64,000 bases of DNA from Alphaproteobacteria bacterium UBA6149 (GTDB lineage Bacteria; Pseudomonadota; Alphaproteobacteria; Rickettsiales; UBA998): positions 3,276-67,275 of the forward strand of contig DIUV01000045.1 in NCBI GenBank assembly GCA_002423155.1, written 5' to 3'. Below, in pieces: positions 5,897 to 58,897 of the stretch. The position numbers and the translations under genes are program-made. The notes beneath the pieces were generated by a model. The model was not told the origin of the DNA and did no database searches. It saw only the letters and a list, made by a program, of their open reading frames with translations. Every line of letters starts with the position of its first letter. The stretch's first letter is position 1.

Positions 5897-7705
5897 ATGG
5901 AAACTGAAAATGGTCTAATTTCTTCGCTTAAAATGGCACCTACAGATAGTATGCTGCCACAAGATGCAGGAAAAACCACCCAAGCAGCCCCCTCTACCAT
6001 ATTAGCAACTTTGGCTAAAAACAAGGTGCGCATTGGTGAGCATCTCATCAATATGGGGCTTATCTCGAATGACCAACTAGAAATCGCACTATTAGAACAA
6101 CGGCATAATAAAAAAATGCTCGGGGTTATCATGGTGGAAATGGGCTTTATCACCGAGAGCGCTTTGGCAGAAGCCTTAGCAGAATCTACAGGTAGAGAAC
6201 GCTTTGATGCCAAAAAAACTATTTTAGACCCCCAAGTCCTAAGCCTGCTTCCCAAAGAAGTAGCAATTCGCCAAAAAGTTGTTCCGATTAGTATGGAAGA
6301 TAATGTCATCCAACTAGCAATGGCGGACGTATATAACGTATTGGCGATTGACTATGTAAGACGTTATTTCCCCAAACAAGCTACTGTTTATCCGCTTTAT
6401 TGTACGGAGTCGGAAATACAAGCGCTGATTGCCAAATATTATGAGTACGAGCTATCTATTGACGGTATTTTACGCGAGATTGAAACAGGTATCCGCGAAA
6501 ACAACAATTATAACATGCTCGATGGTAGCCAGGAAGGCTATGTTAGCCCTACTGTCCGCCTAGTAAATGCCCTGTTGGTAGATGCCATCAAACAAGGCGC
6601 GTCCGATATTCACTTCGAGCCTGAGAATGCTTTCTTGCGCTTACGTTACCGTATTGACGGACAGATGATGCAAATTCGCAGCTTCCACCGAGATTATTGG
6701 CCGGCGATAGCAGTACGCATAAAAATCGTTTCAGGTATGAATATTGCCGAAAGTCGTTTGCCGCAAGATGGACGGATAACTTTTACCTTCATGGGGCGCG
6801 AAGTAGATTTTCGTGTAGCATCCCAACCAACTGTACACGGCGAAAATATCGTGATGCGTATTTTGGATAAAGCCCAAGCGCTTCTACCCGTAGAACAATT
6901 AGGTTTTTCCGAACATAACAGCAATATTCTCCGCCGCTTATTAAAAAGACCTGAAGGAATTATTGTAGTAACGGGTCCAACAGGTAGTGGTAAAACCACC
7001 AGTCTTTATTCCATTTTGAGTTATATCAACTCCATGAGCGTAAATATTATGACGCTGGAAGACCCCGTAGAATATCGCCTACCACTAATTCGCCAAAGTA
7101 ACGTGCGCGAAGGTAGTATTGACTTTTTAACAGGCATCAAATCCATGATGCGCCAAGATCCCGACATTATTTTCGTCGGTGAGGTGCGAGATGAAGAAAC
7201 TGCACTCATGGCAGTGCGTGCTTCCATGACGGGACACCAAGTATTCACCACGTTACACACCAATGATGCACTAGGGGTAATCCCGCGTTTAAATGATATT
7301 GGCGTCCCCTCACATTTGTTAGCGGGCGCATTAATTGGTTGCTTAGCACAACGTCTGGTGCGTAAATTATGCAATGAATGCAAAGAACCACACGAAGCAA
7401 CTCCCGAAGAATGCCATATTATGGGACTTCCCTTTGAAAATCCCCCTTCAATCTATAAAGAAGTAGGCTGTCCAGCTTGCCGCCATCAAGGATTCAAAGG
7501 ACGTATGGCAATCGTAGAAATTCTCCGTGTAGATAAAGAAATTGACGAGCTAATAGCAGAAAGAGCAACAAGAAGACAATTACTTAGATACGCACTCGAT
7601 AATGGCTTCATCCCCATGGCAGAAGATGGCATTCAAAAAGTGTTGGAAGGGCTAACCTCACTAAATGAACTAATACGTCATGTGGATATGACCGACAGAT
7701 TATAG
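5897..7705 (+). CDS. GspE/PilB-family secretion/pilus assembly ATPase with N-terminal MshEN-type domain
   Basis: Walker A GPTGSGKTT, Walker B/Asp box DPDIIFVGEVRD, His box GHQVFTTLHTN, and tetra-Cys CNEC...CPAC. The N-terminus carries the tandem motif RIGEHLINMGLISNDQLEIALLEQ-RHNKK-MLGVIMVEMGFITESALAEALAES. Confidence 0.9.
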   Translation: METENGLISSLKMAPTDSMLPQDAGKTTQAAPSTILATLAKNKVRIGEHLINMGLISNDQLEIALLEQRHNKKMLGVIMVEMGFITESALAEALAESTGRERFDAKKTILDPQVLSLLPKEVAIRQKVVPISMEDNVIQLAMADVYNVLAIDYVRRYFPKQATVYPLYCTESEIQALIAKYYEYELSIDGILREIETGIRENNNYNMLDGSQEGYVSPTVRLVNALLVDAIKQGASDIHFEPENAFLRLRYRIDGQMMQIRSFHRDYWPAIAVRIKIVSGMNIAESRLPQDGRITFTFMGREVDFRVASQPTVHGENIVMRILDKAQALLPVEQLGFSEHNSNILRRLLKRPEGIIVVTGPTGSGKTTSLYSILSYINSMSVNIMTLEDPVEYRLPLIRQSNVREGSIDFLTGIKSMMRQDPDIIFVGEVRDEETALMAVRASMTGHQVFTTLHTNDALGVIPRLNDIGVPSHLLAGALIGCLAQRLVRKLCNECKEPHEATPEECHIMGLPFENPPSIYKEVGCPACRHQGFKGRMAIVEILRVDKEIDELIAERATRRQLLRYALDNGFIPMAEDGIQKVLEGLTSLNELIRHVDMTDRL

Positions 7706-7713
7706 GTATAAAA

Positions 7714-8925
7714 ATGTCTAAACTATATCATTATCGTTATTCAGCAATGAATATCAAGGGTCGAAAAATCAGCGGAGAGATTACCGCCGAGAATGAAGTT
7801 GACTTAGAATGCCGCCTAAAAGAAATTGGGCTGGATATGGTTAATTACCGTGAAGTTAAGCAAGCAAAAGCAGGCTTTTTCTCACGCATAAAAATCCGCG
7901 ATATGATTGTGTTTTGTTTGCACATGGAGCAACTATATCGCGCAGGGGTTCCATTGTTAGACGCATTGGCAGATACACGTGATGCAACCGAGTCACCTAA
8001 ATTGCGTGACGTTCTCACCAATGTTTACGAAAGCGTTAAGTCAGGTAATTTATTATCGCAAGCTATGGCATTATACCCAGATGTGTTCAGCGATGTATTT
8101 GTAGGATTAATCGCCGCAGGAGAAAAAACCGGAAGCTTAAACGAATCTTTCCATAATATTTCCGAGCACATGAAATGGAACGCGGATTTACGCCGCAAAA
8201 TCAAAAAAGCGATGACTTATCCAATTGTACTGGTTGTAGTATTAATTGGGGTAATTTCGGTAATGATGCTCTTTGTAGTACCTAAATTAATGGAATTTAT
8301 TATCTCACAAGGCTTCCATATTCCCTTCCACACACGCGCACTAATGGCATTTTCTAAGTTCTTCGGGGATTATTGGTATCTAATTATCGGGCTACCCGTA
8401 ATTACTTTTATATTTGCAGGAATATTATACCGCACCTCCGAAGCTTTCGCCTATCAGATTGACCGTTTCGTTCTAAAAATCCCAGTAATTGGTGGAACTG
8501 TGCGCAAGATTAATCTTTCACGCTTCACCCATTTCTTTTCAGTTATGTTCAACAGCGGCATCGACATATTAGACTCGCTGGAAGCTGGCAAAAAAGTAGT
8601 AGGAAACCGAGTAATAAAAGATGCAATTGAGTTAGTACATCGCAGCGTAAGCGAGGGTAATCGCATTGCGGATTCCATCAGTCGCTCCAGCCAATTTCCT
8701 AATTTAGTTATCCGCATGTTTAAAGTAGGAGAAGATAGCGGAAACATGTCCGAAGCGTTAGAAAACATAAATTTCTTCTATAACCGCGAAGTATCCGACT
8801 CAATTGACTCCATGATTAGTTTTATCCAACCCGTAATGACGGTAATCCTCGGCAGTATGATTTTCTGGGTGATTGCCGGGGTGTTCGGTCCGTTGTATGA
8901 ATCATTCAGCAAAATGAATATATAA
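7714..8925 (+). CDS. GspF/PilC-family inner-membrane platform protein
   Basis: 403 aa with two GspF-type repeats and three TM segments. It starts 8 nt after the ATPase gene. Confidence 0.85.
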   Translation: MSKLYHYRYSAMNIKGRKISGEITAENEVDLECRLKEIGLDMVNYREVKQAKAGFFSRIKIRDMIVFCLHMEQLYRAGVPLLDALADTRDATESPKLRDVLTNVYESVKSGNLLSQAMALYPDVFSDVFVGLIAAGEKTGSLNESFHNISEHMKWNADLRRKIKKAMTYPIVLVVVLIGVISVMMLFVVPKLMEFIISQGFHIPFHTRALMAFSKFFGDYWYLIIGLPVITFIFAGILYRTSEAFAYQIDRFVLKIPVIGGTVRKINLSRFTHFFSVMFNSGIDILDSLEAGKKVVGNRVIKDAIELVHRSVSEGNRIADSISRSSQFPNLVIRMFKVGEDSGNMSEALENINFFYNREVSDSIDSMISFIQPVMTVILGSMIFWVIAGVFGPLYESFSKMNI

Positions 8926-20732: not shown

Positions 20733-22310
20733 ATGCGTGAATTAAACTTGCTAGACGCAGCCAGCCGCAAGAATTTAAATAATCTCTTTCAAGAATTAGA
20801 GCCAGAAGGTGCCAAAGGGATGGTACAAATGGGCTACACGCTTAGCCTACCTATTTATAATTTTTATAAAAAAAAGCACGGAAATTGGCAATTCAACCAA
20901 AAAGCCATCGAAGATATTCTCGCGCAAGCCGCAATTATCAACCGCCCCTTTGTTGTATATATCGCTGCTGACCATTTCTTTGGTGAATCTGATTATGGAA
21001 AATATCTTGCGAGCCTGCCTGAAAGCCTAATGCAATTTCAAGATGGTAGCGTGCCGAAGGAAAAATATTTCCAAACTGCCATCATACCCTTTCGCATCAG
21101 CAACAATCCTAATTTACCGCATATTAGAGCAAAAATTACCGCATTAAAAATTATTGCCCAACAATTAGCGGATTTTCGCAAAAAACATCCTAATTTATTA
21201 ATTGCTATAACCCTCAATGGTGAAACCCATTATTTATTTGAAAATTTTTTCTCAGGAACGGGAAATTTTAAGAACCCCCGCTTCACCGATTTCAGCCCAG
21301 ATGCAGTAAATGAATTTCGAACCTATCTAAACAAACAATCCGAATATAGTTTACGCGCAAAGGAAATAAAAAAAATAAATTTTGAGCATTACCCATGGGG
21401 TACTTATCCTTTTTTTGGCTGGTATTGCGGCAATCATGAGCAAGAAAAAATCATTATTTATCATAATGGAGCTCGCCTAGCCCCCGCAGAAATGCAACTA
21501 AACCGCATGGATGTTTATGAAGCGCTACCACAATTACAAAACCCCAATTGCGGATTTCGTTACGATATTGATTTTAGCAAATGGTCGCGAGGGACGCACC
21601 GCATTGAAGCGATATTAGAATATAACGACAAGCAATACTCGCTAGATAACAACCAATTAATCTTGCAATTAGGCGACAAAATCACCCCAACCAGCGAGCC
21701 CAAAATTCTACCTAATATCCGCAAAATAAATCGGTTTAATCCCCTTAAAAATAAAGGATATGTAGACCGTGGAAGTAACCAACCCGTATTAGTAAATTAT
21801 ATTCCCCTCGCTCGCCACTGGATGAATTTTCGTGCCGATTCCATAGTTTTGCACCAAAACATGCTAGGAAAAATATTTTCTGATGCAAGTATTCCAACCG
21901 ATATTATTTATAATTATCAACTGCCCCCATTTATGAATGGGGACTGGAATAATGAATTATTTGGCATAGGAAAAGATTTTTTTCAGCAATCAAATTTACT
22001 ATCAGGGGTCACCTTATATGGGGGAAACACCCTTAACCAAGAATTATTTAAACATATACCTCACAACAAAAAATATGGCATACCTGAATTTCACCCTCAA
22101 ATAGAACAAAACCCCTATATTGCTGAGCAGTCCTTACGCTTCCACGCCGCCCAAGGAGCTAGCTTCATCTCCCCTTATTTTATGGATACAGGTGACAAAC
22201 GCCTAAATGATGGCAGCGGCACCCATAAACAAATGCTGATTGAAGCAAACAACCCTCATAAAGGCTCAAATTATCTTTATAAAGCAATCAAAAAAATTCT
22301 CGCCTACTAA
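20733..22310 (+). CDS. Hypothetical protein, possibly a glycoside-hydrolase-like TIM-barrel protein; 5' end apparently frameshifted
   Basis: A 525-codon ORF, but the reading frame is already open from 20649. An upstream out-of-frame leader encodes (M)KPLLLAASLISLTSWVLLSA. The functional guess rests only on a weak resemblance (FTDFSPDAVNEFRTYL) and on its glycan-gene neighbours. Confidence 0.5.
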   Translation: MRELNLLDAASRKNLNNLFQELEPEGAKGMVQMGYTLSLPIYNFYKKKHGNWQFNQKAIEDILAQAAIINRPFVVYIAADHFFGESDYGKYLASLPESLMQFQDGSVPKEKYFQTAIIPFRISNNPNLPHIRAKITALKIIAQQLADFRKKHPNLLIAITLNGETHYLFENFFSGTGNFKNPRFTDFSPDAVNEFRTYLNKQSEYSLRAKEIKKINFEHYPWGTYPFFGWYCGNHEQEKIIIYHNGARLAPAEMQLNRMDVYEALPQLQNPNCGFRYDIDFSKWSRGTHRIEAILEYNDKQYSLDNNQLILQLGDKITPTSEPKILPNIRKINRFNPLKNKGYVDRGSNQPVLVNYIPLARHWMNFRADSIVLHQNMLGKIFSDASIPTDIIYNYQLPPFMNGDWNNELFGIGKDFFQQSNLLSGVTLYGGNTLNQELFKHIPHNKKYGIPEFHPQIEQNPYIAEQSLRFHAAQGASFISPYFMDTGDKRLNDGSGTHKQMLIEANNPHKGSNYLYKAIKKILAY

Positions 22311-27244: not shown

Positions 27245-28291
27245 ATGAAATCTGCTCCGAGTGAAGCTTTACCCGACTTTTTTGAAATATCATCTAATTC
27301 AAAAAAAGCTTTAAAAATAATGGAAGATAATCAAATTGCGCCTAACCCACGTAATTATTCTATCTGGTATCATTACGCACAAGCGGATGACAGCACGCTC
27401 ACCCAAGAAATAGACCGTGCCATTGAAGGAGGGGTAACCTTTGATGATAATGTAAGCTCATATATTTATGACAAATATCTGCTGAATGATGAAAATAACC
27501 TGAACAAGGTAGCCAATGAAAGCACACAAACAAAACAAATATTGAATGATATCTTCAATAGTGTCAGCAAATTATCTGGCAATGCAGATGAATACCAACA
27601 ACAAATGGAACAACATATCAGCAGCTTACGCAATGTGGGCGACAGTAAAAACATTGCTGAATTGCTCTCCAAAATCATAAAAAGCTCAGTTGCCCTCCGT
27701 GAGAACAGCTTGCAAATGCAAAAAAAATTAGATGAATCACAACAAGAAGTATCTAACTTACGCCAAACTCTAGCAAAAACCACAGCAGAAGCCGAACGGG
27801 ATTTTCTCACCGGAGTTTATAACCGCAAAGTATTAGACAAACGCTTTGACGAATTATCCACCATCGCCAACGAACAGAAAACTCCGTTAAGCCTCCTAAT
27901 GGTAGATATAGATTTCTTCAAGAAACTCAACGACAAACACGGACATTTAATTGGTGACGAGGCTTTAAAAATCGTCGCCCGCATCCTCAATGACGGCGTG
28001 CGCGGAAAAGACGTAATCGCCCGTTACGGCGGCGAGGAATTCGCCATATTACTCCCCAACACCCCTTTACAAGGCGCCATGGTAGTGGCAGACTCACTCC
28101 GCCAAGCAATTGCCAGAAAAGAAATAAAACGCACTGACACGGATGAAATGATTGGCAGAATAACCGTATCCATCGGCACCACCGAATGGAAGCCAGAAAT
28201 AGACTCGGTTCCTTTGTTCATCAAACGCGCCGATTCAGCATTATACCGCGCTAAGCATGAAGGCAGAAACCGCGTGATTGGCGAAATTTAG
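27245..28291 (+). CDS. Diguanylate cyclase (GGDEF domain, GGEEF active site plus RxxD I-site) with a coiled-coil N-terminal region
   Basis: The A-site is RYGGEEFAILL (GGEEF at 28028-28042). The I-site RGKD lies 5 residues upstream (28001-12). Also DFLTGVYNRK and the DIDFFKKLNDKHGHLIGDEALK pattern. Confidence 0.88.
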   Translation: MKSAPSEALPDFFEISSNSKKALKIMEDNQIAPNPRNYSIWYHYAQADDSTLTQEIDRAIEGGVTFDDNVSSYIYDKYLLNDENNLNKVANESTQTKQILNDIFNSVSKLSGNADEYQQQMEQHISSLRNVGDSKNIAELLSKIIKSSVALRENSLQMQKKLDESQQEVSNLRQTLAKTTAEAERDFLTGVYNRKVLDKRFDELSTIANEQKTPLSLLMVDIDFFKKLNDKHGHLIGDEALKIVARILNDGVRGKDVIARYGGEEFAILLPNTPLQGAMVVADSLRQAIARKEIKRTDTDEMIGRITVSIGTTEWKPEIDSVPLFIKRADSALYRAKHEGRNRVIGEI

Positions 28292-28794: not shown

Positions 28795-31170
28795 ATGAAA
28801 TATGCAAATATCCGCGAAGAAGAGCTGAAAAACAAAGTAGCTTACGACTACTTTAAGGGTTACGATTGCACAAAAATAGTTGGCAATGTGGATTTTTGCG
28901 TTTGCCCGTTACACCCTCATGGCGATTTTTTTGAACATGACGAATCCCTGCTCTGGGCAGAGGCTAAAAAAGGTGCTTCTGATATTTATAACTCCATCGT
29001 GCAATTGATACTTACCATTGGTAAAGCGCGCACCTTTGATAAATTTCTGCCACCGCCAATGCTAGGGGCGTTTGACGGTGAAAAAATCGCTTTTATACCC
29101 TACAGCGAAATTCACGAAATTTTTTACCAGAATGATTTTAACTGGAATGTGACGCCTTCTGACCACTCCACCAAAGAATTCAAGCTGGTGCATACCAAAG
29201 TAAAAGGTGCGATTGATAGCGGGGCTCTGCTTTTTCATTTTGATAAAGACGAAAAAGAACTAAAAAAATTCATTAAAACTAATTTTATCGCAGGGAAACA
29301 AGAACTCACCAAAACCAGAATTGATAAAAACAATTTCATGGTGATTTACAATAAATGGTTGCAGGCGGTGAAGCCAACCATCGCCGTGAATTGGGATTTC
29401 GCCAAGAAAACAGGCATTATTGATGGCGATTTTTACCTTGCGGATTTGCTCTCACAAGAAAACAAAACCATCAAAGAAAAACTTTTTGTATTGCTCAAAA
29501 ACGACCATTATGAGCTAGACCGAGAAGTGGATGCTGCGGGAATGTTTAGCCGTAAAAGTGCGGAATTCACCGACAAACAAACTGCCCATAAGCAATTTTG
29601 GAACAGGTACGACCGCCCACCCAAAGAGCAATATTGGGAATATATTATCGGGCGTAGGGATTTGCTGGTGCCGCAAGATGTGCGCGAGCGCAAGGGCAGC
29701 TTTTTCACGCCGCAAATTTGGGTGGAACTTTCGCAGAAATATCTCACCGACACACTGGGCGAAGATTGGCAGGATGAATATACCATCTGGGATTGTGCGG
29801 CGGGCACGGGCAATTTGCTGAGTGGGCTGACCAATAAATATACTATCTGGGCATCGACGCTCGATCAGCAGGATGTGGATGTGATGCACGACCGCATCAA
29901 AAACGGTGCCAACCTACTCGACAGCCATGTGTTTCAGTTTGATTTCCTCAATGATGATTTTTCCAAGCTGCCAGCCCCATTGCAGGAAATCATCAACGAC
30001 ACCGAAAAACGCAAGAAACTGGTGATTTATATCAATCCGCCTTATAAAAGGGGGCTTGGAGTAGCAAATACAAGATGGCATAAAGATGAGTTAGGTGAAG
30101 CAAAAGACGAGTTATACATTCAATTTATTTATCGTATTTACAAAGAAGTTCATGGAAGTAAAATCGGTGTTTTTTCTAAGCTAAAATTGTTAAATGCTCC
30201 TGATTTTTCAACCATGAGAAGTATTTTTAATGCAAAACTTGAACGGCTTTTCGTTGTACCTGCAAATACATTTGATAATGTAAAAGGTAAGTTTCCTATA
30301 GGGTTTCAAATTTATGATACGAGCAAATATGAAACTTTCCAATCTATTGATGCAGATGTTTTTGATGCCTATCAAACTTTTTTAGGCACAAAAAAGTTTT
30401 CAACTTATGATAATTCTGTTTTCCTGAATAAGTGGCTTGCTACATTCAAAGATAAAGAACTGCCTATTGCCAAGTTGATTTACAATAGTAACGATTTTCA
30501 ACATCAGAATCGTATTAGAATTACTCATCAAGATGAGAAAGTTTTGGGAGGCGATGGAAAATTCTCAGTTTCTAAATCAAATCTTATAATTGCAAGTATC
30601 TATTTATCCGTTCGCCATGCAATAGATGCTACTTGGTTGAATGACCGCGATCAGTTTTTATATCCGAATGACGGCTGGAAAAGCGACACCGAATTTCAAA
30701 ATAACTGCCTCACCTTCACTTTGTTTAGCAACAATATTCAATCGCAATTTGGCGTAAATCACTGGATTCCCTTTACGGAAGATGAGGTGAAGGCGCGGGA
30801 GAAATTTGAGAGCAACTTTATGAGCAAGTTCATCAGCGGAAAACTAAAAACCGAAGCTCCAGCTCAAATCGATGCTTTTGCCACTACAAAAGAGCGCACC
30901 ACGCCACTGACATTTTCCGCCGAGGCACAAGCCGTTTTTAAGGCAGGGCACGAGCTTTATACCTATTACCACCAGCAACCGAAATGCAATGTCAACGCCA
31001 GCCTTTATGACATAAGGGAAAATTTCCAAGGCAGAAATGCAGCTGGCAGAATGAATAATATAAGTGATGATGAGGCGTATAGCTTCTTAATCAAAAACTT
31101 GCGCGACAAACTAAAAATATTACAAAAAACCATAGAACCAAAAATATATGAATATGAATTCTTGAAATAA
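28795..31170 (+). CDS. Single-polypeptide restriction-modification-like enzyme (N-terminal PD-ExK-like motif, gamma-class N6-adenine methyltransferase, C-terminal putative target-recognition region)
   Basis: D44-X11-E56-A-K58 (GDFFEHDESLLWAEAKK), the FFTPQ motif, SAM motif I WDCAAGTGNLL (29791-), and catalytic motif IV NPPY (30034-30045). 791 aa. No separate R or S gene is adjacent. Confidence 0.6.
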   Translation: MKYANIREEELKNKVAYDYFKGYDCTKIVGNVDFCVCPLHPHGDFFEHDESLLWAEAKKGASDIYNSIVQLILTIGKARTFDKFLPPPMLGAFDGEKIAFIPYSEIHEIFYQNDFNWNVTPSDHSTKEFKLVHTKVKGAIDSGALLFHFDKDEKELKKFIKTNFIAGKQELTKTRIDKNNFMVIYNKWLQAVKPTIAVNWDFAKKTGIIDGDFYLADLLSQENKTIKEKLFVLLKNDHYELDREVDAAGMFSRKSAEFTDKQTAHKQFWNRYDRPPKEQYWEYIIGRRDLLVPQDVRERKGSFFTPQIWVELSQKYLTDTLGEDWQDEYTIWDCAAGTGNLLSGLTNKYTIWASTLDQQDVDVMHDRIKNGANLLDSHVFQFDFLNDDFSKLPAPLQEIINDTEKRKKLVIYINPPYKRGLGVANTRWHKDELGEAKDELYIQFIYRIYKEVHGSKIGVFSKLKLLNAPDFSTMRSIFNAKLERLFVVPANTFDNVKGKFPIGFQIYDTSKYETFQSIDADVFDAYQTFLGTKKFSTYDNSVFLNKWLATFKDKELPIAKLIYNSNDFQHQNRIRITHQDEKVLGGDGKFSVSKSNLIIASIYLSVRHAIDATWLNDRDQFLYPNDGWKSDTEFQNNCLTFTLFSNNIQSQFGVNHWIPFTEDEVKAREKFESNFMSKFISGKLKTEAPAQIDAFATTKERTTPLTFSAEAQAVFKAGHELYTYYHQQPKCNVNASLYDIRENFQGRNAAGRMNNISDDEAYSFLIKNLRDKLKILQKTIEPKIYEYEFLK

Positions 31171-38182: not shown

Positions 38183-39892
38183 ATGAGCATCAACCTGCAT
38201 CTTCCCACCCAAGGTGAATCACTACGCCCGACCATCACTGTTATTGGTGTGGGTGGAGCTGGCGGTAACGCAGTGAACAATATGATTAGCTCTGGCTTAT
38301 CTGGTGTAGAATTTGTGGTTGCAAATACTGATGCGCAAGCGTTGGACAATGCCTTAACTGATCGCACTATTCAGCTAGGCGCTAGCCTGACACGTGGTTT
38401 GGGTGCGGGTGCAGATCCCGATATTGGCTCACGCGCAGCCGAGGAAGCTTTGGACGAAATCGCTGGCTTTATCCAAGGTAGTAATATGGTGTTTATTACT
38501 GCGGGTATGGGCGGTGGAACTGGCACCGGCGCAGCTCCCGTAGTGGCGCGAATGGCGCGTGAACAGGGAATTCTCACTGTGGGAGTGGTAACTAAGCCAT
38601 TCCAGTTTGAAGGCACCATGCGTATGCGCTTAGCTGAGCAAGGTTTGCGTGAGTTACAACAATATGTTGATACGCTTATTGTTATCCCCAATCAAAACTT
38701 ATTCCGCCTTGCTAATGAAAAAACCACTTTTGCCGAAGCGTTCCGCATGGCGGATGAAGTTTTGCATTCAGGCGTACGTGGTGTGACTGATTTGATGGTT
38801 AAACCGGGCTTGGTAAACTTGGATTTTGCTGATATTCGCACCGTAATGCGCGAAATGGGCAAAGCAATGATGGGCACTGGTGAAGCAACCGGACAAAAAC
38901 GCGCAATTGAAGCAGCGGAATCAGCTATATCTAATCCTTTGTTGGATGATGTATCTTTGAAGGGTGCGCGTGCGGTGTTAATTAACATCACTGGTGGACC
39001 AGATATGACCTTGTTTGAGGTGGATGAAGCCGCGAATCGTATTCGTGAGGAAGTTGATGCGGATGCTAATATTATCTTTGGTTCAACCTTTAACCCAGAG
39101 TTAGAGGGTTTAATGCGCGTTTCCGTAGTGGCAACGGGGATTGATGCTGCTAATATGGCGAATTTAAGCAACGCAAACACCAATAAAAACACAGAAACCC
39201 AAGCAGATAAGAAAAACGATGCTTCAAAGCGCCCCTTTAGCTATATGCCCATTCGTGGGCTAGACGCTAACCGTCGGGAAATGAAACCAAATGAGAGCAA
39301 TCAAGCAACTGAAAATACTCAAAAATCAAATGCTAACTTGCCGCGCGAAGAATATACTGCCCCAGAGGCGCAAAATAATTATGAGACGCAAATACAAGCA
39401 GCGGCACAAAATGCTGCATCTACTTCCGCAGCACAGAATTTTCATAATAATATACCTACGAATTTTCCAACCGAGCAGTTTTTTGCTGCTGAAGAAGCAC
39501 CAGAAAATAATTATGCCGATAATTCCCAAAATTCTGCGCAACAAAATACCCCGCAAACCCCAGGTCCGCTTTTTGTAAATCCTACCCCTGCACCAGCTCC
39601 GCATAACCCAGCTCCACGCGGTTATGAAACTTCTTACTCGCGCAACCGTGAGGAAAAATCCGCACCGGTATCTTCTTCTGCCAATAATGGGTTTGGATTA
39701 TTTAATAAATTAGCTGGCGTGGGTCGTGCCATTTCCGCAGCACGTGCACAAGATGAAGAAAAAGGACGTGGCAGTGCTCACGCAGTGGAAGTTTTTGATC
39801 GCCAACGAGTTGAAGCCACTGAGAATGTAAGCAATAAAGCAATGGAAGAAGATTATGACATCCCAGCTTTTTTGCGCCGACAAGCTAATTAG
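38183..39892 (+). CDS. ftsZ: Cell division GTPase FtsZ (long Q/N/P-rich linker)
   Basis: [37 protein letters not shown]. It has a low-complexity linker of about 220 aa and a conserved C-terminal peptide ([13 protein letters not shown]). Confidence 0.95.
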
Positions 39893-42340: not shown

Positions 42341-43330
42341 ATGAAAAAATACCATTATTTAGTAACGGGGGGTGCAGGGTTTATTGGGTCGCATCTGGTG
42401 CGTATTTTGCTGAAATCTGGCTGTCAGGTTACGGTTTTGGATGATCTTTCTACAGGAAAATCCGAGAATGTGCCAGCGCAAGCGCGTTTGATCGTGGGGG
42501 ATACGGCGCAGGCGAATATTTTTGATAATTTATTGAAAAATATTGATGGGATCTTTCACCTCGCGGCGATTGCCTCGGTTGAGCGCTCGCAGTTAGAGGG
42601 ATTTCGTGCACATCAGGTGAATTTGGGGAGCATGGTTAATTTGCTAGACTCCATCCAGCGCAGCCGCCGCACTATCCCGGTGGTTTATGCTTCCTCCGCT
42701 GCTGTTTATGGTAATAATACTGAAAAACCTATTTCAGAAAACACGCCCACTGCACCGCTTTCGGCCTATGGGGCGGATAAATTAGGTTGTGAATTTCATG
42801 CGCGGATTGCCTCGCATCTGCATCTTACTCCCACAATTGGGCTACGCTTATTCAATGTTTATGGACCGGGGCAAGACCCTTCCTCGCCTTACTCGGGGGT
42901 TATATCCTTGGTGGGCAAACGCATAACTAATGGTGAGGCAGTTAATATTTATGGCGATGGCAAACAATCGCGCGATTTTGTGTTTGTGGGAGAAGTGGCG
43001 GATAGTTTTTATCGGGCGATGAATTTATTACATGGTGAGCAGACCCGTTTTGGCATTTTGAATGTTTGTACAGGCAAATCTACCTCTATATTAGAACTTA
43101 CCGCTTTGATTGCGGATATTGCTGGGGTTCAGGCGCAGATTTGCCATCTGGCACCACGCGCAGGGGATATTCGCTTTTCTCAAGGGGATGCTAGTTTGCT
43201 TAAAAAAATGCTCGGACGTGCTCCCTCTATGCCCTTGGCAAATGGTTTGAACTTTACTTTATCTAGTTTTTCGGAATTTTTATTGCCCAATTTTAATAAA
43301 AAGCTTGGAAATCAATTAAACTTCGGTTAA
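42341..43330 (+). CDS. NAD-dependent extended-SDR sugar-nucleotide 4-epimerase (PelX-like position at the head of the pel locus)
   Basis: VTGGAGFIGSHLV Rossmann motif, a catalytic YxxxK (SAYGADKL), and the SSAAVYG pattern. It ends 9 nt before the pelB-like gene. Confidence 0.8.
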   Translation: MKKYHYLVTGGAGFIGSHLVRILLKSGCQVTVLDDLSTGKSENVPAQARLIVGDTAQANIFDNLLKNIDGIFHLAAIASVERSQLEGFRAHQVNLGSMVNLLDSIQRSRRTIPVVYASSAAVYGNNTEKPISENTPTAPLSAYGADKLGCEFHARIASHLHLTPTIGLRLFNVYGPGQDPSSPYSGVISLVGKRITNGEAVNIYGDGKQSRDFVFVGEVADSFYRAMNLLHGEQTRFGILNVCTGKSTSILELTALIADIAGVQAQICHLAPRAGDIRFSQGDASLLKKMLGRAPSMPLANGLNFTLSSFSEFLLPNFNKKLGNQLNFG

Positions 43331-43339
43331 CAACCCCTT

Positions 43340-45781
43340 ATGAAAACTTCGCATTGGATAATATTTGGCACAACTGCCGTAGCAGCTGTTGCGGTTAGTG
43401 CACTATTAATACCCAGTGCGCAGGACTCCGCGCGTATAAATTTACGTGGGGGCAATACAGAAAAAGCGCGCACTCAATTAGAAGCGGAGCTTGCTCAATC
43501 AGGTGAATTAACCACCGCATTAGCGCGTGATTTATCCGAAGTTTACCTACAAGAAAATAATATAGAAAAAGCCGTTTATGTGATGGATAGTTTTGTAAAA
43601 AAACATCCCCAAGATAAGCAAGCCACAGAAAGATTGGCGAGTCTTCAGACTATGCTGCCAAAGCCAGCAGCAGAACCAACGCCATTATTACCTGCCGCAG
43701 AGCCAGCTAAATTAGCAGAAATTGCTCCCCTGCCCTCGCTCCCTCCCATTGAGGTTAAAAATAATATTCCTGCGGTAACTAATATAGTACCAACGGCGCA
43801 GCCAGTTAAACTTACCCCTCTAAAAAACAAAACAAAGCCCAACAACAACTTACCAAAAAAACCTGATTATAATTCACTAGCCTATCAGATGTTAGAGCAT
43901 GGTGATAAAAATAAAGCGGTTGCCATGTTTGAAGTAATGGCAAAAGGTTCACAACCTGGTAGTGCAAAAATCAAACAACTATTATTTGCCGTAGCCCAAC
44001 TACCTTCCGCGCAGGCAATCAGCTGGATTGAAGCACGCCCATTATTGCTAAAAGATAAAGGCGTTCGCGATTGGTATGCAGAGCAACTAGGCAAAAGCCC
44101 AGATTTCCCTGAACATTTCTCCAAGCTTTTACCCAAAGCAAAAGCCGATAAAAATTATGCGGCAATTCTTGCTAGGGCCGCAAATTCAGGCGGATATGAC
44201 AAACAATCCGCGCAAATATTGGACATACAAGCTAAGTTAGAGCCAGAAAATCCACTTCCTTTGCGCCAATTAGCGATGAATGCCTGGCAGATTGGCGATT
44301 ACACAGCAGCGAAAATATATTTAGAAGAAGCAGTGCACTCAAAAGGAAGCGACCCTGAGAAATGGCGGAGTTTTTTCTATCTTGCTGAAATTTATCGAAG
44401 AGAAGGTGCAGGTAAAGATACGGATTACTATCAAAAATCTTTACAGGAAATTAAGCCTATTAGCACAATAACTGCTGATGTGGTTTCTGCCAAAGCGCGT
44501 TCTTTATTATGGATAGGTGAAGCTAGTGCAGGCATAAAAATCTTTGATGAAGGATTAAAACAATTCCCCAAAGACGAAAATCTCCGCGCAGATTATATTG
44601 CGACGCTGATAGAATTGAAACAATATAAACCTGCCATCGCATTATTTCCGCAGGAAATATCGGCGGATGTAAATATGCAAATACGTTACAAATTATTAGG
44701 CGCACGCATTGCTTTAGAAACAGGGCATGCACAAGATGCTACGGATAGACTCACCGAATTAGAGGCAGAAACTAATTATAGAAATTCCGAAGTAATGGGT
44801 TATGCCGCCAGCGCTGCCTGGTATGTGGGCAATAGTGAAAACGCATTACGCAAAATTGCCCAAGCAAAAGCCTTGGCTTTGCATAATGAAGACATCAGCA
44901 AATTAGCGCGAGATATAGAGCGCAATACTGCACCACATGTTTTGGCAGATGAAGAATGGATAAATCGTTCGGGTGGCGTGCAAGAGCGTGTGGATACAAT
45001 AGGATTTAGTGCCGCCATTAATGACAAAATAGATGTGGGCGTCACTGGACAAAACCGCTTGATTGACACCAGAGAGCGCAAAAAACAGAACCAACAATCA
45101 GCTGAAATTTATGGACAAATCATGCTGAATGATGAAAGATGGTTACGCGCTGCGCTTTATGCGAATGAGCGTACTTTAGGCGCAGGACTAGATTATAATT
45201 TCTTAAATAGTCTGGGTACGACTAAAATTACGGCTGAATTGCGCCGCCCGTATTTTGAGCTGCCACAGGCAAGTTTGCAAAATATCACCCGGGATAGAAT
45301 TGCCCTCACCCAGCGATGGCAGCCTTCTAATGATTGGGATATAAAAGGCAGTGTGGGGCTGAATAATTATGGCATAGATGACGAAGATAATGCTTATAGC
45401 GCTACTTCAGTGGATGCTTCAATCGTGCGGCGCATATTTGATTCTCCTTATGTGGGAATTGGTTATGGCTTAAACGCTGAATATAAAGCCCATAAAGCAA
45501 AAAAAGCCGATGGCACGCCGCAAGTTAATTTACAAACCAGAGAAATCCATGCAGTGGCACTTAGCAGTAGCTACGAGATAAACCAAAATCTACTGGCAGA
45601 AGGTTTAGCAGGTTATGCAGTAGATAGATTTGGCGGTAATGGACCATTGGTGGAAGGAAAACTCACCCACACAATAGCAGAAAATTGGGACATCAGCACC
45701 CATGCAGGTTACGGGTTTGATAATAATAATGGCGGTGGAGATGTTGCCCGTTTTGGCATTTCTTTACGGCGTAGATTTTAG
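43340..45781 (+). CDS. pelB: PelB-like outer-membrane export protein (N-terminal anchor, Pro-rich linker, TPR-like repeats, C-terminal beta-barrel)
   Basis: 813 aa with an N-terminal TM/signal segment and helical repeat regions. The C-terminal third is rich in alternating beta-strand patterns and ends FGISLRRRF (an OMP-type terminal Phe). It occupies the position directly upstream of pelD. Confidence 0.65.
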   Translation: MKTSHWIIFGTTAVAAVAVSALLIPSAQDSARINLRGGNTEKARTQLEAELAQSGELTTALARDLSEVYLQENNIEKAVYVMDSFVKKHPQDKQATERLASLQTMLPKPAAEPTPLLPAAEPAKLAEIAPLPSLPPIEVKNNIPAVTNIVPTAQPVKLTPLKNKTKPNNNLPKKPDYNSLAYQMLEHGDKNKAVAMFEVMAKGSQPGSAKIKQLLFAVAQLPSAQAISWIEARPLLLKDKGVRDWYAEQLGKSPDFPEHFSKLLPKAKADKNYAAILARAANSGGYDKQSAQILDIQAKLEPENPLPLRQLAMNAWQIGDYTAAKIYLEEAVHSKGSDPEKWRSFFYLAEIYRREGAGKDTDYYQKSLQEIKPISTITADVVSAKARSLLWIGEASAGIKIFDEGLKQFPKDENLRADYIATLIELKQYKPAIALFPQEISADVNMQIRYKLLGARIALETGHAQDATDRLTELEAETNYRNSEVMGYAASAAWYVGNSENALRKIAQAKALALHNEDISKLARDIERNTAPHVLADEEWINRSGGVQERVDTIGFSAAINDKIDVGVTGQNRLIDTRERKKQNQQSAEIYGQIMLNDERWLRAALYANERTLGAGLDYNFLNSLGTTKITAELRRPYFELPQASLQNITRDRIALTQRWQPSNDWDIKGSVGLNNYGIDDEDNAYSATSVDASIVRRIFDSPYVGIGYGLNAEYKAHKAKKADGTPQVNLQTREIHAVALSSSYEINQNLLAEGLAGYAVDRFGGNGPLVEGKLTHTIAENWDISTHAGYGFDNNNGGGDVARFGISLRRRF

Positions 45782-45793
45782 GGATAAATAAAT

Positions 45794-47137
45794 ATGCAGC
45801 CTGATAAAAAAACTTGGGATAGAAAAACTTGGTTAGGCATACGCGTAGTTGCTTTTGCAGAAATCGCTATCTTACTGGCATTTATACTTATAATCGCTAT
45901 GTTTGCTGGCGATACAGAGCGGTTTCGCAATGTTAATCCGCATCCATTTTGGCTAGTTATATTACTACCTGCTTGTCAATATGGTACGCGTGAAGGGGTT
46001 TTGGCAACTATTGCCGCATCTTTTGCCTTATTATTAGGCAACTTACCCCCCGAAAATATTACCCAAGATCATTATAGCTGGTGGTTAGGTGTATGGAAAT
46101 TGCCGATATTATGGTTAGGCACGGCGGTTATTTTAGGTGAGTTGCGCCAGCGTCATCGTCGGGAAAATGACCGTTTAGTTACTCAATGCCATGAAGCAAA
46201 TATGCGCGAGAATAACATTGCCGAGGCTTATGCCAAAGTACGCAGCAGCAAGGAAGAATTAGAATTACGCATCAGCGGAAAATTACGCTCCGGCTTAGCC
46301 GCGTGGCAAGCTTCTAAAAGGTTGGAATCACTAGACAAATCCGAGATAATTGCCGGGGCAGCAGATTTAATCAGCGCAGTATTATCTGCGGAGAGTTTTT
46401 CTATTTATACGATTGAAAATGGCAAACCATTTTTAGCTTATGCGCATGGTGAATTATCAAACGGCAATTTAGACAAACCAGATTTTCATTTTGGCAGTCA
46501 GCTCTATAATGCCTTATTGGCAGAAACTCAGCCATTATGTGTTATCAATCCTGACCATGAATTATTATTGTCTGGCAAAGCGGTATTGGCAGGAGTATTG
46601 CGCGATAAAGTTACTAATACTGCGATGGGTTTTTTATTGATTGATAAACTGCCCTTTAGCGAACTACATTTTTCGGGTATTGCTAGTTTTTCTGCGCTTT
46701 GTGAATGGGTGGGTACTTCTTTGTCCGCTACGCAAAAATATAAAGATGTGCGGGAAACCAGTATATTAAATCCTGACCATCAATGTTATAGCAATGGTTA
46801 TTATACTCGTTATGTTGATTATATTGAGTCACTGGCTAAACGCCTGAATTTTGATGTAACCCGCATCAACGCCGCTTTGAAAAACCCCGAAAATTTATCC
46901 TCGCATGAGCAAGCAAATGCTGCCCGTTCACTTGGTGCAAGTGTGGATGAAGTGTTGCGGCAAGTAGATTTAGCATTTGATTATCGCAAAGATGGTAGTG
47001 ACATCGCGGTTATTTTGCCTGCTACCAGCCTTAATCAGGCGCAATTGGTAATTAGCAAGCTCGAAGCCGCTTTGACTAATCGTGGGGTGGACAAAAAATT
47101 ATTTAATTTTACGGTGCAGGCAATCCATGCAGCGTAA
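45794..47137 (+). CDS. pelD: PelD-like c-di-GMP receptor (4 TM, GAF-like, degenerate GGDEF-like domain)
   Basis: 447 aa with four N-terminal TM helices, a central GAF-like region, and a C-terminal region that has RQVD (RxxD, 46958-46969) but no GG(D/E)EF. Its position and size match PelD. Confidence 0.72.
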   Translation: MQPDKKTWDRKTWLGIRVVAFAEIAILLAFILIIAMFAGDTERFRNVNPHPFWLVILLPACQYGTREGVLATIAASFALLLGNLPPENITQDHYSWWLGVWKLPILWLGTAVILGELRQRHRRENDRLVTQCHEANMRENNIAEAYAKVRSSKEELELRISGKLRSGLAAWQASKRLESLDKSEIIAGAADLISAVLSAESFSIYTIENGKPFLAYAHGELSNGNLDKPDFHFGSQLYNALLAETQPLCVINPDHELLLSGKAVLAGVLRDKVTNTAMGFLLIDKLPFSELHFSGIASFSALCEWVGTSLSATQKYKDVRETSILNPDHQCYSNGYYTRYVDYIESLAKRLNFDVTRINAALKNPENLSSHEQANAARSLGASVDEVLRQVDLAFDYRKDGSDIAVILPATSLNQAQLVISKLEAALTNRGVDKKLFNFTVQAIHAA

Positions 47138-48236
47138 TTATAATAATTATAATAATTATAGTAATGATGATAATGTAATCAGCCTGCATGTTGCTGCGCA
47201 AGAAACCAGGCCACAAATTGCTGTCTGGGCAATTGCTTTGTTTATGAGCGTTATGCATGGTTTAAACCTGATAGTATTATTAGCTAATGCACATTTTTAT
47301 GGCTGGCTAATTTGCCATTTTGCTTTGGCGATAATTACTTTTTTTATCACTGCCATCATTAATAAAAATGCTAATGAAGATAGCCGCTTTTTGCAGTTGC
47401 TTTCCTTGGTCTCGCTGCCGTTAGGTATTTTCGGTACGCTGGGGGTTTTGCTTAGTTTAATTCGCATAAAATCTTACCTGAAACGCGCCTTATCTTTTGA
47501 ACAATGGCGTGATTTTATTTTCCCCCCCTTGGTAAAAAGCTTAGCACAAAATATTGATGAATCCTTGTTATCGGGGCGCGATGAGGCGGCATCTACTTAC
47601 CAAGTAACTTCTTTTTATGATGTTATTTTATACGGAAATGAAGCACAAAAACGCCAAGCCTTAACGCGGATGACCATGAATTTCAGCCCGGTTTTTGCTC
47701 CTTGTTTTTTACGTGCCCTACAAGATTCCTCGCCAACTATTCGTGTGCAAGCAGCTACTTCTATTGTGCGGATTGAACATGAATTTACCCAAAAAACTTT
47801 TGAGCTGGAAGCTGCCTATAAAAAGAATCAAAAAGTTAGTTTGGCATTGGCAAACCATTATGATGAATATGCATTCACAGGCTTGTTAGATGGACAACGA
47901 GCACAAGAATATCGTGAAAAAGCGCTTAAATTATACAGCGAAGCTTTTGCACAAGGTGCAGGACGCAACGAAAGAACTCGCCTGATTTATGGTAGATTAT
48001 TAATGCGTAGTGATATGCTCGAAGATGCTATCCAATGGTTTAATCAATGTATAAAAACTGGGGATGAACCAAGCATGATAGTGCCATGGCTGGCAGAAAG
48101 TCTATATGCGGCACAAAAATGGGAAGAATTACGCGAAATATCCCGCCGTTTCCATACTCAGCTTACAGGCGGAGTTGGTGAAGCATTACAATATTGCTCT
48201 GCTCCCGCTTGGGCAAGAAAGGCGGTGGCTTTATGA
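47127..48236 (+). CDS. pelE: PelE-like inner-membrane TPR protein
   Basis: The start MQRNYNN overlaps pelD by 11 nt. It has N-terminal TM helices and then helical-repeat (TPR-like) sequence. The stop overlaps the pelF start (ATGA). Confidence 0.62.
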   Translation: MQRNYNNYNNYSNDDNVISLHVAAQETRPQIAVWAIALFMSVMHGLNLIVLLANAHFYGWLICHFALAIITFFITAIINKNANEDSRFLQLLSLVSLPLGIFGTLGVLLSLIRIKSYLKRALSFEQWRDFIFPPLVKSLAQNIDESLLSGRDEAASTYQVTSFYDVILYGNEAQKRQALTRMTMNFSPVFAPCFLRALQDSSPTIRVQAATSIVRIEHEFTQKTFELEAAYKKNQKVSLALANHYDEYAFTGLLDGQRAQEYREKALKLYSEAFAQGAGRNERTRLIYGRLLMRSDMLEDAIQWFNQCIKTGDEPSMIVPWLAESLYAAQKWEELREISRRFHTQLTGGVGEALQYCSAPAWARKAVAL

Positions 48237-49723: not shown

Positions 49724-49741
49724 TATGGATGGATTAGTTAA

Positions 49742-58075: not shown

Positions 58076-58897
58076 TTATGCACTTTCAGATAATTTACGA
58101 ATTTCTTGTTTAACTATACGTTCTACGGTTTGGGGGAGATTTTCATTTACCCATTCTTGCAGCATTGGGCGCATGAATTCGATGATTAAATCTTCCACCG
58201 TGGTGCTCGATACATTCGCATTTTTTTCCACTGGTTTAGGATGGCGATTCGCCGCTTTTTGTGCCAATGCCCGGAAGGCAGAAGTAGCACCACTGGCAGC
58301 ATTAGCCGAAAGTAGGCGATCAATATCACCCAATAATTCTGATTTTGAGGGTTGTTCAGCAGGTGTAGATGCTTCAATGCTGATTACATTATCTTCTATA
58401 ACTGAGCTGGACTTTTTATTATTCATATAATTATCAATTTGTTGCATGGAAGAAACTTCTAAAGTTTCCATTTCTAAAACCGCTTCATTAGAAGAATCAT
58501 CCGATATAGTGGAATCTTCATCAACATTATCATCATTGCTATTATTATTATTGCTCTGTGCAATTTCTACTTCTTCATTAGTATCAGCTACGATAGGATT
58601 ATTATCGTTAAAAGAAAAATCATTATCCGCAGCCGTTAGAATAGCAGTAGATAATACATCACTATTTTGAGATTGGTTATCTTGAGGTGGGGTGAAATCT
58701 TCAATTATATCTGATAGTTCCAATATATCTGCACTATCAGATTTAGTTGAAGCTTCAGCCACATCATCTTTTGAATCAGCTGCTTTTATTGGGGATGCAA
58801 TATTTGGGGTAGTTTCCTCATCGGCAATTATGCGTTTGATTGATTGGAGTATTTCCTCCATCGACTGATCTTGCGCCGCGCCATTACTGCTTGCCAT
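58076..58897 (-). CDS. popZ: Pole-organizing protein PopZ (DUF2497)
   Basis: The N-terminus (QDQSMEEILQSIKRIIADEE), the long acidic low-complexity middle, and the conserved C-terminus (VEDLIIEFMRPMLQEWVNENLPQTVERIVKQEIRKL) together mirror Caulobacter PopZ architecture. Confidence 0.85.
   Translation of the reverse strand: MASSNGAAQDQSMEEILQSIKRIIADEETTPNIASPIKAADSKDDVAEASTKSDSADILELSDIIEDFTPPQDNQSQNSDVLSTAILTAADNDFSFNDNNPIVADTNEEVEIAQSNNNNSNDDNVDEDSTISDDSSNEAVLEMETLEVSSMQQIDNYMNNKKSSSVIEDNVISIEASTPAEQPSKSELLGDIDRLLSANAASGATSAFRALAQKAANRHPKPVEKNANVSSTTVEDLIIEFMRPMLQEWVNENLPQTVERIVKQEIRKLSESA

Follow-up and report, generated by a model that had tools for sequence, protein, structure and literature searches.

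Is an uncultured alphaproteobacterium able to sense c-di-GMP through one of its pilus motors, and how far can this be told from the gene of that motor? The question is raised by a stretch of DNA of 64 kb (the window), in which a PilB-type ATPase of the GspE/PilB superfamily of extension ATPases (5897..7705, +) carries a tandem motif resembling the c-di-GMP-binding site of the MshEN domain. The answer given here is that the protein is probably a PilB-type pilus motor with an MshEN domain predicted to bind c-di-GMP, which would promote pilus assembly or attachment.

A PilB-type ATPase behind a tail predicted to be disordered

The gene encodes a protein of 602 aa, and independent metagenome assemblies yield the same gene with the same length. 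Three codons are candidates for its start (M1, M13 and M19), none of them with a clear Shine-Dalgarno sequence, and the motif is unaffected by the choice. The ATPase domain (6545..7678, +) is matched by Pfam T2SSE over residues 217-594 (E 5e-123) and contains the core of the GspE/PilB family, namely, at computed motif positions, the Walker A motif GPTGSGKT (residues 360-367; 6974-6997, +), the His box TLHTN (residues 452-456; 7250-7264, +) and the tetracysteine motif with its parts CNEC (residues 492-495; 7370-7381, +) and CPAC (residues 525-528; 7469-7480, +). Full-length alignments are obtained with T. thermophilus PilF and with the PilB proteins of Myxococcus and Geobacter (E 1e-113 to 4e-128). 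The NCBIfam model for PilB (TIGR02538) aligns along the full length, residues 46-595, and gives 504.1 bits where its cutoff asks for 675.65; that for GspE (TIGR02533), whose cutoff is 630.25, gives 504.4 bits in an alignment that starts only at residue 118. Since TIGR02538 stays below its cutoff, the ATPase is to be considered a divergent PilB-type subfamily and not a certified PilB equivalog.

Upstream of the motif there is a poorly conserved extension (residues 1-44; 5897..6028, +) predicted to be disordered, with an AlphaFold pLDDT of 47-56 and no secondary structure. The alignments with homologues begin only at about residue 40-46, and the start of the motif in the relatives ranges from 35 to 67 or more. 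The preliminary description had placed the motif at the N-terminus of the protein; it does occupy residues 45-97 as described, but is preceded by this 44-residue segment. Downstream of the motif, the α/β subdomain MshEN_C (residues 98-197; 6188..6487, +) is matched by Pfam PF05157 over residues 103-186, and contains D144 (6326-6328, +), which corresponds to MshE Asp108 at a mapping offset of 36 and is invariant in 43 aligned sequences.

The tandem motif

Residues 45-97 (6029-6187, +) read RIGEHLINMGLISNDQLEIALLEQ-RHNKK-MLGVIMVEMGFITESALAEALAES, a unit of 53 residues organised as 24 + 5 + 24. Motif I, RIGEHLINMGLISNDQLEIALLEQ (residues 45-68; 6029..6100, +; helices α1 and α2), fits the consensus at 11 of 11 specified positions when I is counted for L at position 2, so that position scoring bears out the earlier assertion of a fit to the published motif on those terms. 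The spacer RHNKK (residues 69-73; 6101..6115, +) has the five residues of the published spacer (PMC5013675), and motif II, MLGVIMVEMGFITESALAEALAES (residues 74-97; 6116..6187, +; helices α3 and α4), is slightly degenerate, both as previously described. It departs from the consensus by M for R at position 1 and S for Q at position 24, with further changes at positions 6 (M for L/V/I) and 11 (F for L/V/I), and retains G76, G83, L75, L90 and L94.

The alignment to V. cholerae MshE (5HTL) pairs residues 41-161 with 5-125 without net indel and with all the contact residues in register (R45 = R9, Q68 = Q32, M74 = R38, S97 = Q61, D144 = Asp108), the whole unit corresponding to MshE 9-61. The glycines at positions 3 and 10 are present in both motifs (G47, G54, G76 and G83, equivalent to MshE G11, G18, G40 and G47), and both hydrophobic triangles are complete, with L61/L65/L75 and I46/L90/L94 standing for L25/L29/L39 and L10/L54/L58. 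At position 1, R45 of motif I lies within the R/K/L set of the consensus extended in 2024 (PMC11731258), and M74 of motif II is hydrophobic like Leu, though outside the published set. At position 24, Q68 is kept in motif I and S97 replaces the Gln in motif II; Ser at this terminal position is among the residues that Wang et al. 2016 allowed in their relaxed search.

In a six-frame translation of the whole window, the motif I pattern (with I/V allowed at position 2) matches a single time, at the ATPase, and so does the relaxed pattern used by Wang et al. 2016, the chance expectation of motif I alone being about 3e-6 per window. Residues 45-96 score 63.9 bits on the NCBIfam model NF053729 (‘c-di-GMP_motif, MshE-related’), whose cutoff is 38. 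As far as the sequence goes, the tandem motif on this PilB-type ATPase is therefore of the bona fide MshEN/GSPII type.

The contact residues are also widely kept in the clade. The relaxed motif I is matched by 113 of 120 homologues, among the matches listed, and in those 113 the R, G, G, L, L and Q of the motif are kept at 97-100%. The near-invariance of the contact residues in this set speaks for selection acting on the ligand site. The glycines at positions 3 and 10 are conserved at 85-100% in the clade, and position 2 of motif I, Ile in the window's ATPase, is Leu in 51%. The departures of motif II are likewise shared, since its first position is occupied by L in 82% and by M in 15% of the relatives, and its position 24 by S in 90%. 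The supplement of Wang et al. 2016 holds no entries for Micavibrio, Rickettsia or Alphaproteobacteria.

Predicted fold

The AlphaFold models of the MshEN domain (pLDDT 83) place helices at residues 46-52, 58-71, 75-81 and 87-98, followed by the α/β subdomain. The best PDB match found by Foldseek is the MshE-c-di-GMP complex 5HTL (target-normalised TM 0.85, rmsd 2.2 Å) and the next is the c-di-GMP-bound PilF GSPII-B; the matches also include the non-binders XpsE-N, Xanthomonas PilB-N and GSPII-A.

In GSPII-A, the ligand is blocked by an N-terminal elongation with a capping box of helix α1 (PMC12002112). The sequence upstream of the motif, which is specific to the window and has no Pro at position -2, was tested for such an extension of α1. 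In a second model (residues 1-200), helix α1 begins at I46 with residues 1-45 unstructured and no elongated helix is predicted, and the upstream TLAKNKVR lacks an S/T/D-xx-E/Q/D capping box.

How much do these matches say about binding itself? The preliminary description had proposed an HMM search and a structural superposition as checks. The former gives a score above the cutoff with NF053729, but the same model admits a proven non-binder (PilF GSPII-A, 55.5 bits, run as a control), and was consequently rejected as a test for binders; Pfam PF05157, despite its ‘MshEN’ name, is confined to residues 103-186, that is, to MshEN_C, and is therefore silent on the binding helices. The latter does return 5HTL as the best match, but XpsE-N, Xanthomonas PilB-N and GSPII-A share the fold, and the fold search was discarded for this purpose as well. 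As neither HMM nor fold separates binders from non-binders, c-di-GMP binding by this domain is a strong prediction rather than a demonstration.

A model for c-di-GMP binding

According to the model proposed here, one MshEN (GSPII) domain, with its four-helix bundle at residues 46-98, lies between the disordered tail and the ATPase core, and its tandem motif would clamp one c-di-GMP, as the corresponding motif does in MshE of V. cholerae and PilF of T. thermophilus. The backbone amides of G47-E48 and G76-V77 would read O6/N7 of the guanines, L61, L65 and L75 would stack on one base and I46, L90 and L94 on the other, both bases being capped by R45 and M74, and Q68 would form hydrogen bonds with the ribose-phosphate backbone. 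The clade-wide S97 in place of the second Gln is expected to lower the affinity by roughly one to two orders of magnitude without doing away with binding, and the hydrophobic first residue of motif II might compensate for this in part.

These expectations lean on published affinities. The Gln at the end of motif II supplies two hydrogen bonds; MshE Q61A keeps 1:1 binding at 5.9 µM, 11.8-fold weaker, and PilF Q218E binds at 460 nM, 77-fold weaker. At position 1 of motif II, L is better than R in PilF and Ser abolishes binding, Met not being among the residues tested. Swaps of I for L cost about 2.4-fold, and those between large aliphatic residues about 2-4-fold.

As for the output, high c-di-GMP would in vivo favour the assembly of pili or the attachment to surfaces, presumably through an altered engagement of the machine or protein stability and not as a switch of ATP turnover, by analogy with MshE, PilB2 and PilF. 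The in vitro ATPase activity of MshE is shifted by less than 10% by c-di-GMP (PMC5013675), and that of C. perfringens PilB2 is unchanged in vitro according to a review (PMC11656802). Regulation of the prototypes by c-di-GMP has been seen in vivo only, with binding-site mutants of V. cholerae and T. thermophilus showing altered piliation, twitching or adhesion. Because c-di-GMP barely alters the ATPase rates of the prototypes in vitro, the initial wording that the motor is ‘directly gated’ by it was too strong.

The ligand could come from the window's own diguanylate cyclase (27245..28291, +), a possible local source of c-di-GMP with a GGDEF domain (Pfam GGDEF, E 7e-45; TIGR00254, 182 bits at a cutoff of 37.4), an RxxD I-site and the active-site sequence GGEEF, in which the sequence RGKDVIARYGGEEF begins at 28001. 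This cyclase had been announced in the preliminary description together with PelD, and only the former is confirmed: the candidate ORF for PelD (45794-47137) finds no match in Pfam, NCBIfam or the PDB sequences apart from a sub-threshold one to GAF_3 (19 bits, the cutoff being 27), and its identity as PelD is not supported.

Pilus or secretion?

The gene of a PilC/GspF-type inner-membrane platform protein (7714..8925, +; 403 aa; Pfam T2SSF in two stretches, E 8e-55) starts 8 bp after the ATPase gene, with which it is probably co-transcribed, and adjoins it in 77 of 80 related loci. In the relatives, the cluster around this pair comprises three unannotated proteins (X, Y and Z), an ABC ATPase and PilT/PilU-like ATPases, to which Micavibrio adds a prepilin peptidase beside the pair. 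In the 64-kb window, by contrast, no pilin, secretin, PilM-P, PilD or PilT gene was found; a class-III signal pattern scan of it yielded no prepilin gene, and a tblastn of it with the relatives' X, Y, Z, ABC ATPase and PilT/PilU retrieved no partner gene, only a self-match of the ATPase core. None of the flanking genes of the window is syntenic across the 80 related loci. Since the window lacks these genes, the assignment to a pilus rests on the relatives, in which the ATPase-platform pair is part of a type IV pilus system, whereas in the window it stands alone.

The ATPase might instead drive a type II secretion system in the manner of GspE (cf. P. aeruginosa PA14_29490): TIGR02533 and TIGR02538 tie at about 504 bits, both under their cutoffs, homologues are annotated as ‘GspE/PulE family protein’, and the window has no pilin gene. 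Such a role is nonetheless most improbable, for the alignments with the GspE model and structures begin only at residue 118 or 217 and those with PilB and PilF already at 44-46, the relatives possess two PilT/PilU-type retraction ATPases (in Micavibrio also the prepilin peptidase by the pair), and prepilin-like ORFs appear in the flanks (up to 10 kb) of 5 of the 80 relatives. Furthermore, no gsp genes were found in the window or in the inspected relatives, with GspC, D, L and M unseen in the inspected loci.

Alternatives to a c-di-GMP-responsive motor

Even with a pilus motor, could the domain be a look-alike that no longer binds at physiological c-di-GMP, like PilF GSPII-A, XpsE and the PilB of Xanthomonas and Pseudomonas, and serve only as a protein-protein module, for instance for a PilZ/FimX-like cofactor or for the platform protein? 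We regard this as unlikely. It is true that motif HMM and fold match proven non-binders too, that motif II has lost its terminal Gln throughout the clade, that the 44-residue tail could influence helix α1, and that restoring a perfect consensus failed to rescue GSPII-A, where it is insufficient for binding because of the structural context (PMC12002112). However, the known non-binders have several disruptive changes (G11V, I19R, L29R, R38G, G40L, L54H, L58C and Q61V in XpsE; H33, S39, A41 and R62 in GSPII-A), while here all the Gly and Leu contact positions are intact and one polar contact is lost, a single loss of the motif II Gln leaves binding at 0.46-5.9 µM elsewhere, and the model predicts no elongated or capped α1. 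The domain might, on the other hand, bind c-di-GMP as a quasi-permanent structural cofactor, or for another output such as a Pel-type exopolysaccharide (as proposed for the PilB of Myxococcus and Chloracidobacterium), and not as an on/off gate of pilus extension. In line with this are the ATPase rates of MshE and PilB2, which c-di-GMP does not change in vitro, the suggestion by the PilF authors of a structural cofactor for the nanomolar GSPII-B site, the regulation of EPS by PilB independently of pilus assembly reported in PMC6957770, the PelF and PelG genes within the 64-kb window, and the detachment of the window's ATPase-platform pair from the rest of the pilus cluster that its relatives have. 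Nevertheless, S97 makes an affinity in the signalling range (sub-micromolar to micromolar) likelier than a nanomolar one, the Pel genes are 35 kb off with unrelated housekeeping genes in between, and the mutant phenotypes of V. cholerae and T. thermophilus concern piliation, twitching or adhesion, so this second possibility is quite improbable too.

Comparison with known systems

With V. cholerae MshEN (5HTL; Wang et al. 2016, PMC5013675), the domain shares the tandem 24 + 5 + 24 motif in identical register, and the four-helix bundle followed by an α/β subdomain with the Asp108 equivalent D144. Both domains are also fused to an ATPase of the GspE/PilB family that has a platform protein beside it. 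In contrast to MshE, motif II starts with Met and ends with Ser (Arg and Gln in MshE), the motif follows a 44-residue disordered extension instead of starting at residue 9, the identity between the domains is 25%, and the host is an uncultured alphaproteobacterium without an adjacent MSHA-type pilin cluster. The GSPII-B domain of T. thermophilus PilF (8PDK/8PKZ; Neissner et al. 2024, PMC11731258) is closer at position 1 of motif II, which is hydrophobic in both (L196 there, M74 here, Leu in 82% of the clade); this residue of GSPII-B is the basis of the R/K/L consensus and has been linked to higher affinity (PMC11731258). PilF is moreover a PilB-type extension ATPase and the top full-length match among PDB sequences (E 4e-128), but has three tandem GSPII domains versus one here, keeps both terminal Gln (Q190 and Q218) in GSPII-B and has Lys, not Arg, at position 1 of motif I.

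The architecture of a single MshEN domain on a PilB ATPase is that of the PilB/PilB2 proteins of M. xanthus, C. thermophilum and C. perfringens (review PMC11656802), and the ATPase domains align full-length with Myxococcus PilB (3JC8, E 1e-114). Binding of c-di-GMP is experimental in those three (PMC11656802) and predicted from sequence here, and their genes are part of complete pil clusters or close to them; here only pilB and pilC are together. Lastly, the non-binders PilF GSPII-A (9G1W), XpsE-N (2D28) and Xanthomonas/Pseudomonas PilB-N (7LKM) share the fold and can be matched by NF053729, but show multiple disruptive changes in the Gly/Leu/Arg/Gln contacts or an N-capped, elongated α1, the former not seen in the sequence here and the latter not in the predicted model.

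Significance

The ATPase is an ordinary addition to the well-studied MshEN class, and its mechanism is not new. The gain is incremental, because the mechanism, the domain and the PilB-type fusion are well known, and sequences of this sort receive their label from an existing curated NCBI model. There is a lesson of method in it, in the sense that an HMM match, the Pfam name ‘MshEN’ and a fold match all fail to tell binders from non-binders. If the prediction were confirmed, the variant motif II of the clade would offer a natural test of a partly mapped tolerance (Met/Leu at position 1, Ser at position 24). It is very doubtful, but conceivable, that this variant constitutes a distinct MshEN subclass with an affinity window of its own, and that the detached ATPase-platform pair is a c-di-GMP sensor feeding mainly another output, such as a Pel-type polysaccharide, rather than a conventional pilus motor. 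Returning to the pilus motor favoured here, its confirmation would extend the set of organisms with pilus assembly wired directly to c-di-GMP by an uncultured lineage, made up of MAGs that are labelled Rickettsiales or Alphaproteobacteria and have relatives resembling Micavibrio.

Tandem motif and identity of the ATPase

The 602-aa protein encoded at 5897-7705 (+) contains a tandem MshEN motif at 6029-6187 (+), whose translation, RIGEHLINMGLISNDQLEIALLEQ-RHNKK-MLGVIMVEMGFITESALAEALAES (residues 45-97), consists of two 24-mers separated by the 5-residue spacer RHNKK. Scored against the consensus RLGxx(L/V/I)(L/V/I)xxG(L/V/I)(L/V/I)xxxxLxxxLxxQ, motif I satisfies all the specified positions, counting I for L at position 2, and motif II deviates by M for R (position 1), S for Q (position 24), and M and F at two aliphatic positions. 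Six-frame scans of the window, either with motif I (I/V permitted at position 2) or with the relaxed pattern of Wang et al. (2016; PMC5013675), returned this motif as the single match, the chance expectation for motif I alone being ~3e-6 per window. Translation, scoring and scans thus confirm the motif reported in the preliminary description, which had placed it at the N-terminus; it does belong to the N-terminal domain, but not to the very N-terminus, since a 44-residue extension precedes it.

Farther along, the protein has a T2SSE ATPase domain (residues 217-594, E 5e-123; Pfam) with the Walker A sequence GPTGSGKT, the His box TLHTN and the tetracysteine CNEC...CPAC. The NCBIfam equivalogs for GspE and PilB score ~504 bits each, both under their cutoffs (630 and 676, respectively), the PilB model aligning from residue 46 and that of GspE only from residue 118. 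The best full-length matches in PDB are Thermus thermophilus PilF and the PilB proteins of Myxococcus and Geobacter (E 1e-113 to 4e-128), and alignments to GspE structures are restricted to the ATPase core. The nearest homologues (~70% identical) come from MAGs labelled Rickettsiales or Alphaproteobacteria, and those from Micavibrio share ~50% identity. Most likely, the protein is an extension ATPase of the PilB type whose single MshEN domain takes one c-di-GMP.

Homology to MshE and probable ligand binding

With phmmer, residues 41-161 align to 5-125 of the MshE crystal construct (PDB 5HTL) with zero net indel, which fixes the residue correspondence: R45=R9, I46=L10, G47=G11, G54=G18, L61=L25, L65=L29 and Q68=Q32 in motif I; M74=R38, L75=L39, G76=G40, G83=G47, L90=L54, L94=L58 and S97=Q61 in motif II; and D144=Asp108 in the C-terminal subdomain. 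A relaxed motif I is matched by 113 of 120 homologues, in whose 53-residue segments its R, G, G, L, L and Q are 97-100% conserved; position 1 of motif II is Leu in 82% and Met in 15%, and position 24 is Ser in 90%. D144 is invariant across 43-sequence alignments.

The AlphaFold model of residues 38-194 (pLDDT 83) has four helices, with an alpha/beta subdomain after them, and its top PDB match is the c-di-GMP complex of MshE (5HTL; target-normalised TM 0.85, rmsd 2.2 A), followed by PilF GSPII-B structures with the ligand bound. Modelling, proposed earlier as a check, thereby gave the MshE complex as best match, but it does not discriminate binding, as the non-binders GSPII-A, XpsE-N and Xanthomonas PilB-N are matched too. 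Another proposed check, an HMM search with the T2SSE_N/MshEN model, misses the binding helices: PF05157 (Pfam 'MshEN') covers only residues 103-186, the C-terminal alpha/beta subdomain, and since it lacks the binding four-helix bundle, its label is no evidence for a c-di-GMP site. The curated NCBIfam model NF053729 ('c-di-GMP_motif, MshE-related') does cover the motif (residues 45-96, 63.9 bits vs a cutoff of 38). However, in a comparison in which the window fragment (57 aa, residues 43-99) scores 69.8 bits, GSPII-B 63.6 and GSPII-C 60.2, the experimentally proven non-binder GSPII-A still reaches 55.5. GSPII-A stays non-binding even with a perfect consensus restored, because close contacts between its subdomains and an alpha1 helix that is elongated and N-capped block the site (Neissner et al., 2025; PMC12002112). 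What the HMM and fold matches establish is therefore homology; they do not show that the ligand is bound.

Calibration against mutants favours binding. At position 1 of motif II, MshE has Arg; PilF GSPII-B has Leu, and its replacement by Arg (L196R) weakens binding 4-fold. The consensus has been widened there to (R/K/L), a hydrophobic residue being tied to high affinity (Neissner et al., 2024; PMC11731258). Ser at this position abolishes binding; by sequence, Met74 resembles Leu. As to the terminal Gln of motif II, MshE Q61A retains 1:1 binding (5.9 uM, 11.8-fold weaker) and PilF Q218E binds at 460 nM (77-fold weaker), with loss only in the double mutant Q190E+Q218E; by analogy, Ser97 should weaken binding without abolishing it. 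An Ile-for-Leu swap costs ~2.4-fold in affinity, and known non-binders deviate at many contact positions (eight changes in XpsE). Upstream of the motif, the window protein has no Pro at position -2, unlike most relatives, so that an elongated helix alpha1 as in GSPII-A might be suspected; nevertheless, this upstream stretch contains no capping box, and a second model (residues 1-200), in which residues 1-45 are unstructured (pLDDT 47-56) and alpha1 begins at I46, predicts no such elongation. On balance, the single MshEN domain probably binds c-di-GMP, with an expected affinity in the sub-micromolar to low-micromolar range.

In the Micavibrio-like branch (L041-L077, loci of relatives at ~50% identity), position 24 is Lys in motif I (…LQEK) and S/T/A in motif II, so that neither motif has the canonical Gln; although both are absent, a fragment from this branch scores 76.7 bits on NF053729, above that of the window.

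That the motor is "directly gated", as initially suggested, is too strong: stimulation of MshE ATPase by c-di-GMP in vitro is below 10% (PMC5013675), and the PilB2 rate does not change (reviewed in PMC11656802). Since these rates hardly move and binding-site mutants nonetheless show altered piliation, twitching or adhesion in vivo, c-di-GMP would more likely act on machine engagement, oligomerisation or protein stability.

That MshEN domains on ATPases of the PilB/MshE/GspE family bind c-di-GMP has been known since 2015-2016, and several structural characterisations and a curated annotation model exist. The present protein would be a new member of this kind, its motif II slightly divergent, from an uncultured lineage of Alphaproteobacteria; the supplement of Wang et al. 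(2016) has no entries for Micavibrio, Rickettsia or Alphaproteobacteria.

Genomic context

A PilC/GspF platform gene (7714-8925, +; Pfam) starts 8 bp 3' of the ATPase gene, and the two adjoin in 77 of 80 related loci, in none of which the window's flanking genes accompany them. Downstream of the pair, relatives carry proteins of ~570-600, ~220 and ~290-370 aa without Pfam match, which may be divergent alignment-complex (PilM/N/O/P-like) components, and then an ABC ATPase, two convergent PilT/PilU-type ATPases and a TPR protein (L003:13001-21456 in one related locus; similarly in L007, L010, L024, L045 and L080). A prepilin peptidase also lies beside the pair in Micavibrio and, together with the PilT/PilU-type ATPases, it identifies the family as belonging to a type IV pilus system. 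Searches of the window found neither these partner genes (no-Pfam proteins, ABC ATPase, PilT/PilU-type, prepilin peptidase) nor prepilin genes. Here the pair has a flavin oxidoreductase gene on one side and a hexapeptide-repeat gene on the other, within housekeeping chromosome. An assembly artefact is ruled out, because the identical arrangement recurs in independent metagenome assemblies.

The GGEEF cyclase announced by the preliminary description is borne out by a 348-aa protein (27245-28291, +) whose GGDEF domain retains the active site GGEEF intact as well as an RxxD I-site. Over its N-terminal ~180 residues the protein has no match to a known sensor domain, and it is a plausible local source of c-di-GMP. 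PelD, also announced, could not be confirmed. A six-gene Pel-like operon (42341-51157, +) does include PelF (48194-49723, +; DUF3492 plus GT1) and PelG (49742-51157, +), both confirmed, and upstream of them an epimerase and an 813-aa TPR protein, PelB-like but shorter than that of P. aeruginosa. However, the ORF that occupies the place of PelD (45794-47137, 447 aa) has no match in Pfam, NCBIfam or PDB sequences beyond a sub-threshold GAF_3 (19 bits vs a cutoff of 27), and its identity as PelD is plausible from gene position. The 384-aa protein in the PelE position has no family match, and neither the six genes nor the other large window ORFs scanned (at least 150 aa) match PelA or PelC families.

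ORFs 28795-31170 (+, 791 aa) and 20733-22310 (+, 525 aa) match nothing in Pfam or NCBIfam. Three further ORFs are consistent with an origin in the Alphaproteobacteria, as is the taxonomy of the closest MAGs: an FtsZ of unusual length (569 aa; 38183-39892, +), a fused IspD-IspF (56136-57308, +) and a PopZ-family match below threshold (58076-58897, -; 94.5 bits vs a cutoff of 125).
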